DNA of 64,000 bases from an uncultured Chloroflexia bacterium (GCA_963705215.1 CAVPJI010000010.1:104564-168563), one strand, 5' to 3'; counted from the stretch's first letter, positions 5,915 through 56,264 are shown. Numbers and translations: made by a program. The notes: a model not told the origin generated them from the sequence alone.

Positions 5915-6891
5915 TGGCCGCGGTCCGGCGCATCGAACCCCGCGACCCACCCCGGCCCGGGGAGCCGTTCCTCGAGGTCCGGGGTCTTGAGGTCGTGCGC
6001 GCGCAGCGGCGCATCCTCGCCGTCGACGAGCTCACGATCCGGGCGGGCGAGACGCTCGCGATCGTCGGTCCCAACGGCGCCGGCAAGAGCACGCTGCTCC
6101 TTGCTCTGGCCGGCCTCCTGCGCCCGGATCGGGGCTCGATCGTCGTCGAGGGCGTGCCCGTGGTCCCCGACCGGGACCTGACCTACCGACGACGGATCGG
6201 GCTGGTGCTGCCCGCGCCGCTGCTGCTGTCGACGTCGGTCTACGGGAACGTCGCCGCTGGCCTGCGCTTCCGGGGCGTCGACGCAGCGGAGACCCACGAG
6301 CGGGTCGAACACTGGCTGGAGCGGCTGGCGATCTCCCACCTGTGGGACCGTCCGGCCAGCCAGCTCTCGAGCGGCGAGGCGCAGCGGACGAGCCTCGCCC
6401 GCGCCCTGGTGCTGGATCCGGAGCTGCTCCTGCTGGACGAGCCGTTCGTGGCGCTCGACAGCAGGACGCGCGCGCAGCTCCTCGATGACTTCGAGCGGCT
6501 CCGGGCCGAGGCCCCGACGACGCTGGTGCTCGTGACGCACCACCTGCACGAGGCCGTCCGGCTGGGCGACCGCCTGGCCGTCCTGCTCGACGGGCGCATC
6601 CGCCAGTGCGACGTCCCGGAGCGGGTGATGGGGTCGCCGGTCGACGCGGACGTGGCCGCGCTCGTGCAGACCGAAGCGCGGATCCGGGGGCACGTGGTCG
6701 CGTCGGAGGACGGGCTGGTGGTCGTGGACACGGGAGCCGGGTCGAGACGGGACGTGGAAGGCCGTGCCCGGCGCCTCCTGGACGCGACGCACGCGACCGG
6801 ACCTGCGGCACGCGACGGCGCCAGCGGGGCGCATGATGCGAGCAGCGGAGCGGACGTACGCGCCGCGGCGGGCGGCCCTGGAGGTTCGTGA
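5914..6891 (+). CDS. tupC: Tungstate ABC transporter ATP-binding protein TupC.
   Basis: Walker A GPNGAGKST, signature LSSGEAQR, Walker B LLLLDEP, H-loop. The real protein starts at MAAVRRIEP inside ORF 5362..6891. Its stop overlaps the AOR start. Confidence 0.8.
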   Translation: MAAVRRIEPRDPPRPGEPFLEVRGLEVVRAQRRILAVDELTIRAGETLAIVGPNGAGKSTLLLALAGLLRPDRGSIVVEGVPVVPDRDLTYRRRIGLVLPAPLLLSTSVYGNVAAGLRFRGVDAAETHERVEHWLERLAISHLWDRPASQLSSGEAQRTSLARALVLDPELLLLDEPFVALDSRTRAQLLDDFERLRAEAPTTLVLVTHHLHEAVRLGDRLAVLLDGRIRQCDVPERVMGSPVDADVAALVQTEARIRGHVVASEDGLVVVDTGAGSRRDVEGRARRLLDATHATGPAARDGASGAHDASSGADVRAAAGGPGGS

Positions 6892-9116
6892 TGGGGTACG
6901 GGAGCAACGGGACGATCCTGCGGGTCGACCTGACCCGCGGAACCACCGCCGTCGAGACCTTCGAGGAGTCCTTCTACCGGCGCTATCCCGGCGGGAAGGC
7001 GCTCGCTGCGTACCACCTCCTGCGCGAGATGCCGGCCGGGGCGGATCCCCTGGGTCCCGACAACGTCCTCGTGCTCGCGACCGGCCTCCTGACCGGCGCG
7101 CCCGTCTCCACGGCGACGCGCTTCAATGCCATCGCCCGGTCGCCCCTCACCGGCGCCTTCGGCGAATCGGAGGCCGGCGGCTACTGGGGCCCCGAGCTGA
7201 AGATGGCCGGGCTCGACGCGATCATCCTCACCGGGCGGTCACCGGAGCCCGTCTGGCTCTGGATCCGCGACGGCGTGGCCGAGATCCGCGACGCGCGGAC
7301 GCTCTGGGGCCAGGACCCGCCGACGGTGCAGGCCGCCATCAAGGCCGCAGTCGGCGAGAAGAGCGCGCGGGTGCTCCAGATCGGCCGCGCCGGCGAGAAC
7401 CTCGTCCCCTACGCGATGCTCATGAACGAGCTGCGCCACTACAACGGCCGCACCGGGATGGGCGCCGTCATGGGCTCCAAGAACGTGCGGGCGATCGCGG
7501 TGAAGGGCTCGCGAAGGTACCTCGAGCTGGCCCACGACCCGGGGGCCCTCGGGGCGATCGGCAAGCGCCTCGCGGGGGAGATCGCCGACCACCCCCAGGG
7601 CTGGGACCTGCGGACGAAGGGAACGCCGGGCCTGACCGACGGCCTCAACGCCGGCGGCATCCTGCCGACGCGCAACTTCCGGCTGGGGTCGTTCGAGCAG
7701 GTCGAAGGGATCGGCTGGGCGGCCTACGAGGCCATCCGCAGCGGCACCCGCACCTGCTACCTGTGCGCCGTCCGCTGCAAGCCGGAGACCGCGTTCTCCG
7801 GGCGCTACACGGTCACCGACACCTACGACGGGCCGGAGTACGAGGGGATCGCCGGCTTCGGCTCCAACTGCGCGATCTTCGACCTCCAGCTGGTGGCCAG
7901 GGCCAACGAGCTGTGCAACGAGCTGGGCCTCGACGTCATCTCGACCGCGGGCACCGTCGCCTTCGTCATGGAGTGCGTGGAGCACGGCCTCCTCGGGCCC
8001 GCGGACCTCGGGGGCGTGGACCTGCGGTTCGGCAACGGCGAGGCGCTTCTCGACACGATCCCGCTCATCGCCGAGCGCCAGGGGATCGGCGAGCTGCTGG
8101 CCCTCGGATCGCGGCGGATCGCCGAACAGGTCGGCGGCGAGGCGATCTCCTTCGCCATGCAGGTCAAGGGCCTCGAGATGGCGATGCACGAGCCGCGTGG
8201 CAAGGTCGGCGTGGCCCTCGGCTACGCCACCAACGAGGCCGGGGCGGACCATCTCGTCGGCTTCCACGACGGCGTCTTCGTCAACCCCAAATCGGTCTCG
8301 TTCAAGGGCGCCACGAAGATCGGGATCACCGAGCCGGCCGACGTCTTCGACCTCGGTGAGACGAAGGTCCGCAACTGGTACACCGCGGAGCGCTGGAACA
8401 GCGCCGAGAAGGTCCTGGGCCTCTGCTTCTTCGGCCCGGCCCCGCGCTCCTTCATCCAGGTCGACGACGTGGTGGGCGCCGTGCGTGCCGCGACCGGCTG
8501 GGATGTCACGGTGGACGAGCTCCTCGACGTGGGCGAGCGGGCGGTCAACCTGGCCCGGCTCTTCAACGTCCGGGAGGGCTTCTCGCGGGCCGACGACCGG
8601 CTGCCCGGCCGGCTCCACGAGCCGCTCGAAGGCGGGACGCTGACGGGGCGCTCGATCGACCGCGAGGCGTTCGAGGCGGCGGTCACCCGGCTCTTCGAGC
8701 TCAAGGGCTGGGATCCGGCGACCGGTGTGCCGACGCCGGAGCGGCTGCGCACCCTGGGCCTCGACTCGGCCGCGGACCGGGTGGCGCTCGGGGGTGCCGC
8801 GCCCGGGGGTGCCGCGCCCGGGGGTGCCGCGCATCGGGGGTGCCGCGCTCGGGGCGCCAGGCGGATCCGTCGAGGCCCTGTGAAGGTCCATCTCTGGGGC
8901 GAGCTCGGCTTCTACGGCCCCGAGCGGCGGAGCCGGTTCGAGGTCCGGCTCGACGCCGAGCTGCCCCTGCGCGAGGTCCTGCGCCTGATCGGGGTGCCAG
9001 AGGCCGAGGTCGCGGTTGTGGGGCTCAACGGCGAGGTGGTCCGGCTCGACGACCCGTCCCTCGTCGTCCGCGACGCGGACCGCCTCGACCTCTTCCCGGC
9101 GACGAGCGGAGGCTGA
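6888..9116 (+). CDS. aor: Tungsten-containing aldehyde:ferredoxin oxidoreductase (AOR family). It runs in frame through a Gly/Ala/Pro repeat linker into a C-terminal MoaD/ThiS-like beta-grasp domain ending in Gly-Gly.
   Basis: MMGYGSNGTILRVDLTRG…, CYLCAVRCKP (4Fe-4S Cys motif), and the full-length AOR fold through …GVPTPERLRTLGLD. There is no stop codon before the linker GGAAPGGAAPGGAAHRG and the 79-aa tail. Confidence 0.9.
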   Translation: MMGYGSNGTILRVDLTRGTTAVETFEESFYRRYPGGKALAAYHLLREMPAGADPLGPDNVLVLATGLLTGAPVSTATRFNAIARSPLTGAFGESEAGGYWGPELKMAGLDAIILTGRSPEPVWLWIRDGVAEIRDARTLWGQDPPTVQAAIKAAVGEKSARVLQIGRAGENLVPYAMLMNELRHYNGRTGMGAVMGSKNVRAIAVKGSRRYLELAHDPGALGAIGKRLAGEIADHPQGWDLRTKGTPGLTDGLNAGGILPTRNFRLGSFEQVEGIGWAAYEAIRSGTRTCYLCAVRCKPETAFSGRYTVTDTYDGPEYEGIAGFGSNCAIFDLQLVARANELCNELGLDVISTAGTVAFVMECVEHGLLGPADLGGVDLRFGNGEALLDTIPLIAERQGIGELLALGSRRIAEQVGGEAISFAMQVKGLEMAMHEPRGKVGVALGYATNEAGADHLVGFHDGVFVNPKSVSFKGATKIGITEPADVFDLGETKVRNWYTAERWNSAEKVLGLCFFGPAPRSFIQVDDVVGAVRAATGWDVTVDELLDVGERAVNLARLFNVREGFSRADDRLPGRLHEPLEGGTLTGRSIDREAFEAAVTRLFELKGWDPATGVPTPERLRTLGLDSAADRVALGGAAPGGAAPGGAAHRGCRARGARRIRRGPVKVHLWGELGFYGPERRSRFEVRLDAELPLREVLRLIGVPEAEVAVVGLNGEVVRLDDPSLVVRDADRLDLFPATSGG
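8791..8850 (+). repeat. About 4 tandem copies of a 15-bp unit (GGGGGTGCCGCGCCC) encoding the (GGAAP)n linker between the AOR and MoaD-like parts.
   Basis: Seen directly: gggggtgccgcgccc gggggtgccgcgccc gggggtgccgcgcat cgggggtgccgcgct. Confidence 0.8.
8880..9116 (+). other. MoaD/ThiS-like sulfur-carrier domain (VKVHLWGELG…LFPATSGG*). It has an in-frame GTG that could also act as an independent start.
   Basis: It is 79 aa and ends exactly in GG before the stop. The beta-grasp pattern (V..NGE.V…D.L…P..GG) is like MoaD/AorD. Confidence 0.6.
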
Positions 9117-9395
9117 CCGGGCGGAGCGTCGGCCAAAGCCGCCGACCCACCTTGCGCTGAACGCAACACCCCGCGGCCCGGCGGTCAGCTCACGTCCGCC
9201 CACGGGTCCCCACGGCAGGATCCTTGCCTTGGCCAACCGCTTTCCTGCCGTCGCCATCCTCAGGACCAGGCCGGGCTGTCCGGAGGGCAGCCTTCTTGCG
9301 CCTGACCTGCGAGAACCTGCTGGGCGAACGTGACCGCCTGCGCGGTGTTGCGTTGAACGCAACCCCGACCGGCGCGGGGGGGTGCCGGGCCAGAG
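9107..9395. repeat. Dispersed repeat copy A (about 290 bp), immediately after the AOR stop. The terminal palindromes are TTGCGCTGAACGCAA and GTTGCGTTGAACGCAAC, and there is an internal near-palindrome GGCAGGATCCTTGCC.
   Basis: Near-identical to 10250..10541 over about 290 bp in direct orientation. The ends are TTGCG-N5-CGCAA palindromes. Confidence 0.85.
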
Positions 9396-9488
9396 TCGGC
9401 GCCGGGCACGAGGCGGCGCCGCGGATCACGCTCGGACAGTCAACTCGCCGTTGAGTCGCATGTAAGTGACGCCACCCACAATGGCTGC

Positions 9489-10142
9489 GTGGCATCGATC
9501 GAGCGCCTCATGGACCGCGCCAACCAGCGCGCCGACGCGGCCATTCGCGGGGCGGGCCGGGAGATCCGCATTGCCCGCCGGGATCGGAACCTCAGCCTCG
9601 ACCGAGCCGGGGCGGCCGCAGGCATCTCCGCTGCGGCGACGAGCCGGATCGAACGCGGGCTCGCTCCGGAGGTGTCAGTCCTGAGGTTGACGCAGCTCGC
9701 CGAGGTTGTCGGCCTCGAGCTGTCTCTGCGCCTCTTCGCAGGCGGTTCCCCCATCCGCGACGAGGTCCACGCTTCACTCCTGGGGCGCTGTCGTGACGGA
9801 ATACACCCCAGCCTCCGATGGTCCATCGAGGTGCCGCTCCCGAACCTGGGTGATGACCGGGCATGGGACGCGATGGTGTCGGGTCCCGGCTGGCGGTACG
9901 GCGTCGAGGCGGAGACGGCTCCTCGCGACGTGCAGGCTCTATCCAGGCGCCTTGCGCTCAAGCTCCGCGACGGTGACGTGGATGGCATCATCCTCGTTCT
10001 TCCACGCACTCGACGGGTCCGCGAGTTCCTCGCCGCGAGCCGCGGAATGCTGGCCGAGGCGTTCCCGATCCCGGGAACAGTCGCTCTGGCTCGATTGAAG
10101 GACGGGCTCGACCCCGGCGGCAGCTCGATCATCCTTATCTGA
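9489..10142 (+). CDS. XRE-family helix-turn-helix transcriptional regulator with an uncharacterised C-terminal domain of about 140 aa.
   Basis: IRIARRDRNLSLDRAGAAAGISAAATSRIERG is an HTH_XRE motif. The C-terminal region (WRYGVEAETAPRD…DGIILVLPRTRR) matches no domain I can name. GTG start. Confidence 0.7.
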   Translation: MASIERLMDRANQRADAAIRGAGREIRIARRDRNLSLDRAGAAAGISAAATSRIERGLAPEVSVLRLTQLAEVVGLELSLRLFAGGSPIRDEVHASLLGRCRDGIHPSLRWSIEVPLPNLGDDRAWDAMVSGPGWRYGVEAETAPRDVQALSRRLALKLRDGDVDGIILVLPRTRRVREFLAASRGMLAEAFPIPGTVALARLKDGLDPGGSSIILI

Positions 10143-10249
10143 CGGGCAGGGCGACGCGCACCGAGTGGTGGGGCGACGCGCACCAAGGACGGGGCACCTC
10201 CCGCTGGCGTTCCCGCCCGCTGATCCGCCCGACCCGTGTCCTGCGGCAA

Positions 10250-10541
10250 CGGAGGCTGACCGGGCGGAGCGTCCGCGGCACGTGGGCCAAGCCGCCGACC
10301 CACCTTGCGCTCAACGCAACACCCCGCGGCCCGGCGGTCAGCTCACATCCGCCCACGGGTCCCCACGGCAGGATCCTTGCCTTGGCCAACCGCTTTCCTG
10401 CCGTCGCCATCCTCAGGACCAGGCCGGGCTGTCCGGAGGGCAGCCTTCTTGCGCCTGACCTGCGAGAACCTGCTGGGCGAACGTGACCGCCTGCGCGGTG
10501 TTGCGTTGAACGCAACCCCGACCGGCGCGGGGGGTGCCGGG
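10250..10541. repeat. Dispersed repeat copy B, a direct repeat of copy A, between the XRE stop and the moeA 3' end.
   Basis: The same about 290-bp sequence as 9107..9395, with a few mismatches. Confidence 0.85.
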
Positions 10542-10595
10542 TCGACCGGCCGGCCCCAGACCACCCGCAGGGTCAGGCGTCCCGAACCGCGAGCG

Positions 10596-11871
10596 TCAGG
10601 CGTCGAGTCCGCGAAGCACCCAGGCGACGGTCTCCGCGCCCGCCGGGAGGTCGACGTCCGGCGGGATGAACAGCATGCCGTTCGCAAGCGAGAGCGAGGC
10701 CAGCATGTAGGAGTCCTGGCCACCCGACGAGCGGGCGACGAGCCCGTCCGGGCGGTCCGGGTCAGGTGCCAGGGCGACGCGGGCGACGGTGATCCGGCCG
10801 TCGGACCCCCGCATCGGCTCGGTGAGACGGACGATGCGTTCCGGCCGGTCGAACGCCCGCGCATGGCCGGCCAGCAGGCGCAGGACGGGCCGCACGAAGA
10901 GCTCGAACGTGACGAAGACGCTCACCGGGTTCCCGGGAAGCCCGAAGAGGCGGACGGATCGACCGCCGACGGTCGCCCGGGCGAACGCGAACGGGCGTCC
11001 CGGCTTGATCGCGACCCGCCAGACGTCCAGCGTCCCGACGTCGGAGAACGCGGCCTTGACATGGTCGTGCGCGCCCACGCTGACGCCGCCGCTGAGGATG
11101 ACGACGTCGGCCCAGGCCACGCCCTCGCGGACGAGCGCGAGCAGGTCGGGCAGCGTGTCGCGCGCGACGCCGAGCCGGCGCACCTCGGCGCCCGCGTCGG
11201 CCGCCTGCGCTGCGAGCGCGTACGAGTTGGAGTCGTGGATCTGGGCCGGCCCCAGCGGCTGACCGGGCGGAACGAGCTCGTCGCCGGTGGAGATCACCGC
11301 GACGCGCGGCCGGCGGTGAACCGTCACCGTGGCGTGCCCGGTGGCCGCGAGGAGCGCGATGGCCGCCGGATCGCAGGCCCGGCCGCGATCGAGGAGGGCG
11401 GCGCCGGCGACCACGTCGGTACCGGGGAGGCGCACGTTGGCACCCCGGCGCAGGGCGGCGCAGGATCGCGACCGAAGCGGGGATCTCCGAGGCGCCGGCC
11501 GACGCATCCGTGTCTTCGACGGGCACCACGACGTCGGCGCCGGGCGGCATCATCGCGCCGGTCATGATCCGGAGCGCCGTCCCGGGCACGACCTCCCCGT
11601 CCGGGGTCCGGCCGGCGGGCACCTCGCCGAGAACCCGGAGGACGACCGGATGGCCGGGGCCCGCCGCGGCGATGTCCTCGAAACGGGCCGCGAAGCCGTC
11701 CATGGCGCTGTTCGTCCACGAGGGAACCGTCAGCTCCGAACGGACCGGGCCGGCCAGGACGAGGCCTGCGGCGTGGGCGAGGTCGACGACCTCCACGGGG
11801 AGCGGTTCGATCCCGTCGAACACCCGGCGCTGGGCCTCGGCGAGTGGGATCAGGTCCGGAAGATCGGGCAT
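10596..11871 (-). pseudogene. moeA: Molybdopterin molybdenum/tungsten-transferase MoeA, disrupted by a 10-bp tandem duplication (about 11445-11464; CCGGCGCAGG/GCGGCGCAGG on the plus strand).
   Basis: The N-terminal MoeA part is in ORF 10762..11871 and the C-terminal part (…VAVISTGDELV…GGVSVG…LPGNPVS…) is in ORF 10596..11507. Removing one 10-bp copy restores …SVAILRRGANVRLPGTDV…. Confidence 0.8.
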
Positions 11872-13742: not shown

Positions 13743-14612
13743 CTACCGGTCTGCGGTCGGCGGTGCGCCGTTCGGGGGGATCGGCTCGGTCGGGAACTCC
13801 GGCGCAGGGACCTCGTTCGGAGGGCGGGCCTCGTTCGGAGCCGAGGTTCCGTTGGGCGCCGGTGGCTGGTCGGGCGTTGCCGGAGAGTCGGGCGCCGCGG
13901 CGTCGGCGGGCGAGATCGGCGCCGTCGGCCCGGGTGCGTCGGTGAGGGGAGTCGGCTCCGTGGGCGCAGTCCTCGCACCGCGACGCCGCAGCGCGATCGC
14001 GGCCGCCACGAGCAGTCCGACGCCCACGAGGAGGAGTGCGAGGAGCGCGAGCCCTCCGTTCGACCCGTCGCCCGAGCCTTCGGCGGGCGGCGGCGACGGG
14101 ATTGGCGTGACGTCGACGGTCTGGGCCGGGGTTGGCGCCGGGCTGGGTGTGGGCGACGGGCTCGGCGAAGGCGAAGCCGTCGGCGACGGCGTGGCGGTCG
14201 GGCTCGCCGTCGGCACAGGCGTTGGCGTGGACGGGGTGGGCGAGGGACTCGCCGTCGGAACAGGCGTTGGCGTCGGTGTCGCTGTCGGCGCTGGCGTTGG
14301 GGTCGGCGTCGCCGTCGGCGCTGCGGTCGGCGCAGCCGTCGGCGTCGGTGTCCGCGTCGGCCTGGGCGTCCGGGCCGGGGTGGGCGCCGGGGTCGGCTCG
14401 ACCGTTGGCGCCGGCGTTGCCTCCGCCGTCGGCGCTGCGGTCGGCTCTGCCGTGGGCGCCGGCGTCGCAACCGGCGGAATCGAGACCGTGGGACGCGGCG
14501 GCAAGGACGGGAGGCCGCTGGGCAGCTCGATCCCGCCGCAGCCGGCGACAAGCGAGGCGAGTACGGCGACCAGCGCGACACCGCGGGCTCCCGCCAGGAT
14601 CCGGCTGCTCAT
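13743..14612 (-). CDS. Lipoprotein with a long Pro/Thr/Ala-rich linker, a C-terminal TM helix and a Pro-rich tail.
   Basis: [27 protein letters not shown] lipobox, about 150 aa of (PTPTPA)n, and [27 protein letters not shown]. The underlying DNA is low-complexity and repetitive. Confidence 0.5.
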
Positions 14613-55642: not shown

Positions 55643-56264
55643 TCAGTCCTTGCGGCGGATGGCCCGCTTGGCCTCGCTGATCAGGTTGCTGCGAGAGGCG
55701 GCACGCTGGATGTCGTGCTCCTTGGCGCGGGCAAGATCCCGCGCAAGGACCGGGTTCATCGTCCCGATCATGTGGCCCTCGACGTCGACCTCGCCGATGC
55801 CCTTGGCCTTCTTGACTCCCTCGGGCGCCTTGGCCTTCTTGACGTGGCCCTCGACGTCGTCCTCGACGGCCCTGCTCTTGATGACGCCGTCGGGGGCCTT
55901 CTGCTTGATAGACGTGGCCCTCGACGTCGTCCTCGACGGCCTTGCTCTTGATGACGCCGTCGGGGGCCTTCTGCTTGATCACGTGGCCTTCGACGTCGTC
56001 CTCGACGGCCTTGCTCTTGATGACGCCGTCGGGGGAGCTCTTCTTGTAGACGTGGCCCTCGACGTCGTCCTCGACGGCCTTGCTCTTGATGACGCCGTCG
56101 GGGGCCTTCTTCTTGATAGACGTGGCCTTCGACGTCGTCCTCGACGGCCTTGCTCTTGATGACGCCGTCGGGGGCGCTTCTTCTTGATAGACGTGGCCTT
56201 CGACGTCGTCCTCGACGGCCTTGCTCTTGATGACGCCGTCGGGGGCCCTCTGCTTGCTTGTCAT
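55643..56264 (-). pseudogene. Repeat protein with about 6 tandem 23-aa units (APDGVIKSKAVEDDVEGHVYK-K) and a conserved tail (…GHMIGTMNPVLARDLARAKEHDIQRAASRSNLISEAKRAIRRKD). The frame is broken because three of the DNA repeat units are 70-71 bp instead of 69.
   Basis: I translated the minus strand manually. The frame is lost after unit 1, restored after unit 2, and lost again after unit 5. The listed ORF 55494..56264 continues out of frame. The sensible C-terminus is in the +1 frame and ends at about 55643. Confidence 0.5.
55842..56261 (-). repeat. Tandem array of six 69-71 bp units (GACGTGGCC-CTCGACGTCGTCCTCGACGGCCTTGCTCTTGATGACGCCGTCGGGGGCCTTCT-GCTTGATA). The periods are 70, 69, 69, 70 and 71 bp.
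   Basis: Seen directly on the plus strand. The ACGTGGCC anchors are at about 55842, 55912, 55981, 56050, 56120 and 56191. Confidence 0.85.

Follow-up and report, generated by a model that had tools for sequence, protein, structure and literature searches.

A gene for a predicted XRE helix-turn-helix/PD-(D/E)xK protein bracketed by copies of a dispersed palindromic repeat in an uncultured Chloroflexia bacterium

REP sequences and RAYT genes are, to our knowledge, the only well-described pairing of a gene with a dispersed palindromic repeat, and the occurrence of the two together is said to have been described by Nunvar in 2010. In the REPIN/RAYT system the repeats form dispersed palindromic doublets, and the gene is present in a single copy, is vertically inherited and has adjoining repeats (Bertels & Rainey 2011, PMC3116915). 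Here, we describe a module with a related layout in a 64,000-nt stretch of DNA from an uncultured Chloroflexia bacterium, referred to below as the window, with positions counted from its first letter. The module consists of a gene for a 217-residue protein, in which an XRE-type helix-turn-helix (HTH) is followed by a predicted PD-(D/E)xK restriction-endonuclease-like domain, and of two near-identical direct repeats, copies A and B, which bracket the gene and each contain one element of a dispersed, palindrome-bounded family. With moderate confidence, we propose that the gene encodes a site-specific DNA-binding protein flanked by its own cognate sites, and that the bracket is an old duplication shaped by gene conversion.

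REP/REPIN-RAYT appears to be the closest analogy to this module. In both, an extragenic and dispersed family is built from two inverted palindromic sequences, a gene that is (or here may be) cognate adjoins it, the gene is inherited vertically in synteny, and repeat copies are long-lived at orthologous positions. REPIN/RAYT systems have tens to hundreds of repeat copies in a genome and a single-copy gene; the window contains one gene and four elements. However, RAYT is an IS200-like transposase of the Y1/HUH type, while the protein described here combines an XRE HTH with a PD-(D/E)xK fold and has no Y1_Tnp match in Pfam. The element is also longer, ~215 bp with two extra internal modules compared with at most ~100 bp for REPINs, and neither excision nor transposition intermediates were seen here.

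Other known systems share single features with the module. Like the Correia/NEMIS, ERIC and RPE MITEs (miniature transposable elements with inverted repeats), the element is short, non-coding, multi-copy and intergenic with inverted arms of 23-30 nt, and it sometimes overlaps the 3' end of a gene and then provides the stop codon, as in LigA (below). Unlike in MITEs, neither target-site duplications nor a partner insertion sequence whose ends match nor any insertion polymorphism came to light here, and each arm is in itself a palindrome of 15 bp, such as dimeric HTH proteins bind. The 217-residue protein contains a Cro/C1-type HTH domain. In contrast to the autoregulated XRE/Cro repressors (434, P22, the C proteins of restriction-modification systems, HipB and ClgR), the sites here are 100-200 bp apart at the two ends of a mobile-looking element, are dispersed in the genome and in some genomes stand downstream of the gene, and in place of a simple dimerisation domain the C-terminal part has a predicted nuclease fold. 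Fusions of a C protein and a restriction endonuclease are also known, for example CR.NsoJS138I (PMC3850674). As in this fusion, a single polypeptide combines a controller HTH of the XRE type at its N-terminus with a PD-(D/E)xK domain at its C-terminus, and palindromic boxes lie near its gene; unlike it, there is no methyltransferase partner here, the locus is chromosomal and syntenic, and the sites lie inside a dispersed repeat.

The strongest indication of what the palindromes are for comes from their distribution. Copies A and B each contain two perfect 15-bp palindromes, TTGCG-N5-CGCAA, starting at 9152 and 9348 and at 10305 and 10501, and besides these four the 64 kb contain no perfect TTGC-N7-GCAA site (0.25 expected by chance). 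When eleven gene loci are pooled, 15 perfect sites are found in the 14.5 kb near the genes, i.e., within 700 bp, and 0 in the other 110 kb. The clusters stand beside homologous genes in four unrelated neighbourhoods. At the locus of the window, and at the same locus in contig L004/L073 of the metagenome-assembled genome (MAG) MFD00905.bin.3.204, also an uncultured Chloroflexia bacterium, two sites are upstream of the gene and two downstream. At the Dak1 locus, five homologues (P0016, P0017, P0022, P0026 and P0033; 67-75% identity) occupy a conserved Dak2-Dak1-gene-MM_CoA_mutase order, each with one family element immediately upstream that is oriented like copy A. A 58% homologue between the polyprenyl synthase and CNNM genes (L115) has three sites just downstream, including TTGCGTCAGGCGCAA and GTGCGTCGCACGCAA, and a 56% homologue between the rhodanese and sigma-70 genes (L116) is followed within 220 bp by four perfect GTTGC-N7-GCAAC palindromes. 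As a test of translocation, Dak1 and MM_CoA_mutase were searched for in the 64-kb window, and neither is present.

Since the clusters accompany the gene in four contexts, and since the sites are distributed 15 to 0, we take the TTGC-N7-GCAA palindromes to be most likely the cognate sites of the protein. The initial annotation had offered the same idea, that the palindromes serve this very HTH protein, and the comparison between loci argues for it. In the predicted recognition helix, S52 and R53 are nearly invariant and E55 is invariant, which fits a shared TTGC half-site.

Matches of the protein to sequence families are confined to its N-terminal third (HTH_31 and HTH_3, in Pfam and NCBIfam). 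For the C-terminal domain, no match was found in Pfam (53 homologues), NCBIfam, PADLOC, PHROGs or a PDB profile search, all of which returned the HTH only. The AlphaFold2 model, built from an alignment of 53 homologues, has a mean pLDDT of 90.2 and places an alpha-beta-beta-beta-alpha-beta domain after the HTH, which Foldseek matched to AF1548, Bax1 and YaeQ. As modelled, the C-terminal domain is a PD-(D/E)xK restriction-endonuclease-like fold outside any curated family. The initial annotation could not name this domain and had pointed to such a structural comparison; the fold now has a name, while it remains true that no Pfam or NCBIfam family describes it. The best structural matches of the HTH include the restriction-modification controllers C.AhdI and C.BclI.

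E114 (strand 1), D127 (strand 2), E140 (end of strand 3), Q149, R153 and R154 are invariant across the family, and E142 is nearly so, giving E140-A-E142 at the end of strand 3. The conservation of E114, D127, E140 and E142 suggests a putative active site. Compared with XisH (the fdxN-element excision factor, 2okf), AF1548 (1y88), NucS/EndoMS (2vld) and YaeQ, the protein has no detectable sequence similarity, and it is set apart by the fusion to an XRE HTH, by a putative D...ExE motif and by being without a Pfam family. The C-terminal domain is found in 752 clusters at 50% identity (E<=0.001), of which at least 400 are found at E<=1e-10. Among the matches listed, nearly all are ~217 residues long and have the domain at residues 86-217, i.e., the same architecture, and all members that have an organism name in the source database are Chloroflexota MAGs. 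Viral contigs gave no homologue. Should the palindromes be the protein's cognate sites, this is a sizeable uncharacterised family of two-domain HTH-nuclease-fold proteins for which a 15-bp DNA target is already predicted.

Copies A and B are 98.6% identical (279 matches, 4 mismatches and 11 gap positions), with a 10-bp deletion in copy A near 9131 as the largest gap. The initial annotation had recognised these near-identical direct repeats, and its coordinates were correct within a few bases. It described the gene as exactly bracketed; the gene is bracketed, but with 89 nt between the end of copy A and the gene start and 107 nt between the gene stop and copy B, the fit is not exact. Between copy B and the 3' end of the minus-strand gene moeA there are 53 nt. 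Nor does copy A start at the stop codon of the gene for aldehyde:ferredoxin oxidoreductase (AOR), as had been proposed. It starts 7 nt 5' of the stop codon of a 78-residue ThiS-family open reading frame (ORF), whose final two codons and stop are inside the copy, and the AOR frame is joined to this ORF only by a 1-nt indel. The homology between A and B exceeds the family element on both sides, by ~45 nt to the left of the left arm, into the ThiS-like ORF, and by ~35 nt past the right arm.

The family element is ~215 bp long and has one 23-nt arm at each end, the two arms being mutually inverted. The left arm reads TTGCG-N5-CGCAACACC.CGC and the right arm GCGCGGTGTTGCG-N5-CGCAA, with one perfect 15-bp palindrome inside each. 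The complementarity of the arms is 87% in copy A (9152-9174 with 9340-9362) and 91% in copy B, and the arms are conserved over the 19 copies of the element alignment (A4). Two related modules, GGCAGGATCC-TTGCG-TTGG and GGCAG..TTC-TTGCG-YCTGACC.GCGAGAACCTGC, lie between them. Every copy checked is intergenic, and there is no coding capacity, as frame-breaking indels between the copies of A4 exclude a conserved ORF.

Element counts cover the 64-kb window and fragments of up to 14 kb. In the window, the element profile finds four copies: A, B and two solo copies, C1 and C2, which are the diverged distant copies already reported in the initial annotation. At least 12 independent metagenome copies have these arms and the two internal GGCAGGATCC-TTGCG modules, and additional copies are found in two Chloroflexota MAGs (L005 and L043 in one, L012 in the other). 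A scan of metagenome contigs with both arms returned 23 stretches, of which 13 were confirmed by the family profile, 12 of them distinct (L092 and L094 have the same sequence), while the remaining 10 failed this confirmation. A scan of genome contigs with one arm (18 specified bases) returned 76 stretches, nearly all of them chance matches in unrelated phyla; genuine elements were present only in MFD00905.bin.3.204 (L005, L043 and L073) and in an Anaerolineaceae MAG (L012). No element was found in viral contigs.

C1 recurs at its orthologous position in L081 and L101, and so does C2 in L089 and, within 8 kb at 89% identity, in L043. C2 is short and degenerate in the window and in L043, canonical in L089, and looks like a decaying relic. 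Both solo copies are, as judged from these alignments, old. In L103, an element at 2185-2403 overlaps the 3' end of LigA, and its left-arm palindrome (GCC TTG CGT TGA) provides the final codons and the stop. The 732-residue ORF that ends at this element had been a candidate for an empty site of AOR; this was ruled out, as the ORF is LigA, the NAD-dependent DNA ligase. The dispersed intergenic copies and the LigA stop codon derived from an element point to a MITE-like spread at some time in the past. The flanks of the element, CCGACC..CC and GGC.G.CC, recur in independent copies and thus belong to the element itself. No copy-specific target-site duplications were seen among the aligned copies, and no insertion polymorphism between the related genomes compared (C1 in L081/L101, C2 in L043/L089, A and B in L004). 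Thus, the search for further copies that the initial annotation called for did find them, but neither of these two insertion marks.

Short tandem arrays (19-21-nt units, 4-7 copies) adjoin gene-linked elements in several genomes, at 6089-6193 in L004, at 4796-4953 in L002, at ~2750-2850 in L119 and downstream of the element in L012, and their sequences are genome-specific. Beside the orthologue of C1, L101 has an extra 1.15 kb (1544-2698), which holds another HTH ORF, unlike the one described here, and an unassigned ORF of ~350 residues, where the window has only 118 nt (1442-1560). Judged from their translations, the pair of genes next to this short segment may be PIN/VapC-like and AbrB-like.

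The history of the bracket can be followed in two relatives, the metagenome contig L001 (99.57% identical to the window, a strain-level comparison) and L004 (coding DNA 90-94% identical). The gene order in L004 is as in the window, i.e., AOR, the ThiS-like gene, a repeat, the gene (89% amino acid identity), a repeat and moeA, and its A and B copies are 83% identical. In L004 the final ~23 nt of the ThiS-like gene are visibly part of the duplicated stretch (TCCCGGCGACGAGCGGGGGCTGA compared with TCCCCGCGACGAGCGGAGGCTGA, sharing TCCC.GCGACGAGCGG.GGCTGA). When the spacer preceding copy B was aligned locally with the ThiS gene, the score was no higher than for shuffled sequences, and a duplication reaching further into this gene was thus not detected. 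Both copies of the window are closer to copy B of L004 (87-88%) than to its copy A (80-82%). In the window, two single-nucleotide differences separate A from B; in L001 both are evened out and the copies agree, with the B state at 9159 in copy A and the A state at 10347 in copy B. This pattern indicates that gene conversion between the copies, 1.15 kb apart, is probably ongoing.

Gene conversion explains the 98.6% identity without a recent insertion, and the same layout in L004 means that the duplication is older than the split between the window and L004. The duplicated stretch exceeds the element on both sides, so neither two independent insertions nor a composite transposon would produce it, and the ThiS fragment next to copy B suggests that B was copied from the A side. 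Together, the alignments indicate that the bracket probably arose long ago by local duplication and that gene conversion has kept its copies uniform. For annotation, this is a warning that near-identical flanking repeats need not mean a recent insertion, as gene conversion over 1.15 kb mimics recency.

A mechanism that would connect these observations can be proposed. The gene and the adjacent element form a conserved unit, and before the split from L004 a piece of ~300 bp, consisting of the last ~23 nt of the ThiS-like gene and the element, would have been copied from the upstream side of the gene to a position 107 nt downstream of it. Dimeric HTH proteins of the Cro/434 type bind half-sites about one helical turn apart; the half-site spacing here is typical of such dimers, and the protein would dimerise on the 15-bp palindromes, with the HTH domains making the contact. 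Dimers on two arms, 100-200 bp apart, could then bridge through their nuclease-like domains, and bridging at its own gene would lead to autoregulation. If the domain is catalytically active (E114, D127, E140 and E142), the nearby copy would be the template for mending breaks at the arms, and such repair could account for the observed gene conversion as well as the past copying of elements. Occasional imprecise copy-paste would give a copy B that carries a ThiS fragment. Of all this, the structure of the repeat, the domain fold, the link of gene and palindromes, the layout's age and the trace of conversion are shown by the analysis, and binding, bridging, cleavage and regulation are inferred. 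If the palindromes are indeed cognate, this would be a second, mechanistically different gene tied to a dispersed palindromic repeat, and it would bear on how repeats persist in bacterial genomes.

Several observations weigh against this proposal. In three genomes of the Dak1 context (L002, L104 and L105), the arms of the gene-adjacent element are degenerate, of the type TTGAG...CTCAA, while the protein is intact, and perfect adjacent sites are therefore non-essential. One homologue locus (L119) has no palindromes, and none is seen at that of L114, of which only 195 nt of upstream flank were covered. For L115 and L116, the location of the sites, downstream of the gene and with convergent genes on either side, is a poor fit to a simple promoter operator. 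The putative catalytic motif is D...ExE, where the canonical motif is D...ExK, i.e., the lysine is replaced by a glutamate. BamHI has a site of the D...ExE type, to which the motif here may correspond. Finally, copying may have run from A to B, but this direction and the mechanism of the duplication are putative.

The proposal also has a conservative form, in which the protein may be a pure regulator and the nuclease-like domain an inactive dimerisation domain. A consensus scan of 8900-10800 for promoters and terminators found no promoter-like site, and the single terminator-like site falls inside the HTH-nuclease gene. Another palindrome, TCAAC-N5-GTTGA, is present at 9441-9460 (TCAACTCGCCGTTGA), in the spacer between copy A and the gene start, and is partly conserved in L004. 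This palindrome could be the actual promoter-proximal operator.

In the other direction, the proposal can be extended to a REPIN/RAYT-like system, in which a vertically inherited, single-copy HTH-PD-(D/E)xK nuclease mobilises or maintains the elements in trans; the elements around its gene would then have the same cause as the REPs around RAYT genes. We regard this extension as possible but doubtful. The gene adjoins or is flanked by repeats in four contexts, the elements are dispersed and intergenic palindromic doublets, and at the Dak1 locus the gene keeps its synteny and is passed on vertically; the predicted nuclease fold with its invariant acidic residues, and a copy B that includes flanking ThiS sequence as imprecise copy-paste predicts, would also agree with it. 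However, insertion polymorphism was not observed, C1 and C2 are kept at orthologous sites in genomes with 80-90% nucleotide identity, C2 seems to be decaying, and transposition intermediates and target-site duplications were not found. We also know of no PD-(D/E)xK protein with an XRE HTH that acts as a DNA mobiliser. In the same tentative spirit, it can be speculated that a vertically inherited family of HTH-PD-(D/E)xK nucleases in Chloroflexota are the cognate enzymes of dispersed palindrome-bounded repeats, a pairing of host and element like REPIN/RAYT but with another class of enzyme, cutting or bridging the TTGC-N7-GCAA arms and driving their copy-paste and the concerted evolution around the gene, to which we assign a similarly low probability.

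A reading of the ~215-nt element as a structured RNA (a leader, a small RNA or an ERIC/REP-like terminator or stabiliser) and of the bracket as a duplicated RNA gene is unlikely. The repeat unit does fold as a long hairpin (-127 kcal/mol, z = -3.5), but such a fold is expected for any element with long inverted arms. Rfam has no match to the repeat at the gathering threshold (whole window) or at E<=10 (9000-10700). RNAalifold on 19 copies gives a covariation term of ~0 (0.08), and in the arms and both internal stems of these copies 84% of the cells are paired, compared with 83% in column shuffles, without an excess of double-sided changes. What is conserved in the element is sequence (TTGCG, CGCA, ACC, GCA and TGCG), a pattern as expected for DNA that may be bound by a protein. 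Copies are found in both orientations relative to the neighbouring genes, although the orientation upstream of the gene is constant, in two independent lineages only, and the loops of both arms mostly have a G at the central base on the same strand.

The idea of a recent duplication or insertion, put forward in the initial annotation as a composite mobile cassette or a MITE pair that had captured or delivered a regulator between AOR and moeA, is very improbable. The homology passes the ends of the element and takes in the ThiS stop region, L004 has the same layout with copies that are only 83% alike while its coding DNA is 90-94% identical, homologues elsewhere have a single element, and there is neither a transposase nor a target-site duplication. 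The copies do belong to a dispersed family bearing terminal inverted repeats, so that the MITE-like character of the family stands, but the near-identity of the two flanking copies, the other point in favour of a cassette, is accounted for by conversion, and the solo copies are conserved.

It is hardly credible that the module is a remnant of a restriction-modification or defence system, a C-protein-endonuclease fusion with the upstream palindromes as C-boxes, as no methyltransferase gene is adjacent in any of seven contexts (AOR/ThiS-MoeA, Dak1-MM_CoA_mutase, polyprenyl synthase-CNNM, rhodanese-sigma-70 and others), PADLOC matches are limited to the HTH domain, an association with phages is absent, related genomes keep the gene in synteny and the palindromes are present in the host genome itself, all of which stands against the HTH matches to C.AhdI and C.BclI, the existence of natural fusions of this kind (PMC3850674) and the predicted PD-(D/E)xK fold.

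Table 1. Coordinates of the module, the other family elements and the neighbouring genes in the window.
Feature	Position	Strand	Basis and remarks
Gene for 217-aa protein: XRE-type HTH (~20-82) and predicted PD-(D/E)xK restriction-endonuclease-like domain (~90-217)	9489..10142	+	Pfam, AlphaFold2, structure searches
Direct repeat copy A, 293 bp	9107..9399		ThiS 3' end, spacer, family element and ~30-35 nt beyond; 98.6% identical to B
Direct repeat copy B, 293 bp	10250..10542		Starts with the ThiS 3' end in non-coding form, CGGAGGCTGA
Family element in copy A	9143..9371	+	nhmmer family profile E=3e-47; alignment A4
Left-arm palindrome TTGCGCTGAACGCAA	9152..9166		Arm reaches 9174, inverted relative to 9340-9362
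Internal module 1, GGCAGGATCCTTGCC...TTCCTGCC, GGCAGGATCC-TTGCG half-site block	9214..9249	+	Conserved in A4
Internal module 2, GGGCAGCCTTCTTGCGCCTGACCTGCGAGAACCTGC, second TTGCG half-site block	9286..9321	+	Conserved in A4
Right-arm palindrome TTGCGTTGAACGCAA	9348..9362		Perfect 15-bp palindrome
Family element in copy B	10296..10524	+	nhmmer E=4e-46; palindromes 10305-10319 and 10501-10515
Solo element C1	1126..1350	+	nhmmer E=7e-54; between convergent genes; palindromes with 1 mismatch each
Solo degenerate element C2	40046..40225	-	nhmmer E=8e-10; between MarR-like gene and membrane-protein gene
Tungsten-type AOR gene	6888..8883	+	Pfam AFOR_N 1.6e-71, AFOR_C 8.5e-116
78-aa ThiS/MoaD-like beta-grasp ORF, ends GG	8880..9116	+	Pfam ThiS 1.8e-06; separate gene in L001
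moeA (MoeA_N, MoCF_biosynth, MoeA_C)	10596..11871	-	Pfam; two frames, one +1 indel near 11455 inside MoeA_N

The neighbouring genes are listed in Table 1. The C-terminal linker of AOR is encoded by a 15-nt tandem repeat, GCGCCCGGGGGTGCC, at 8784-8854, in 4-5 copies that give a GAAPG-type linker. A 1-nt indel at 8832, relative to L001, sets AOR in frame with the ThiS-like ORF, and the resulting 742-residue "fusion" may be strain variation or an assembly error. The moeA gene had been taken as inactivated, which may be an assembly artefact. In L004, moeA is intact at the position equivalent to 11455 but has two other frameshifts, and several genes are split in contigs from the same assembly set. 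The moeA indels may thus be long-read errors, more than the mark of a pseudogene common to both genomes, though real decay would leave the same picture. A functional link of the module to the tungsten/molybdenum cofactor genes was not found, as homologues of the gene occupy unrelated neighbourhoods.

Other repeats in the window were also observed. A unit of 69-70 nt occurs six times in tandem at 55783-56256, with 79-94% identity between copies, and probably encodes a repeated protein segment; at 14124-14478 a long repeat with a 12-nt period lies within overlapping Ala/Pro/Thr/Gly-rich ORFs on both strands. Three pairs of diverged direct repeats are 70-75% identical: 18253-18369/21197-21313 and 18958-19017/21872-21931, both at a spacing of 2.9 kb, and 42790-42908/44159-44277, at 1.4 kb. 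The pairs at these two spacings look like neighbouring paralogous genes.

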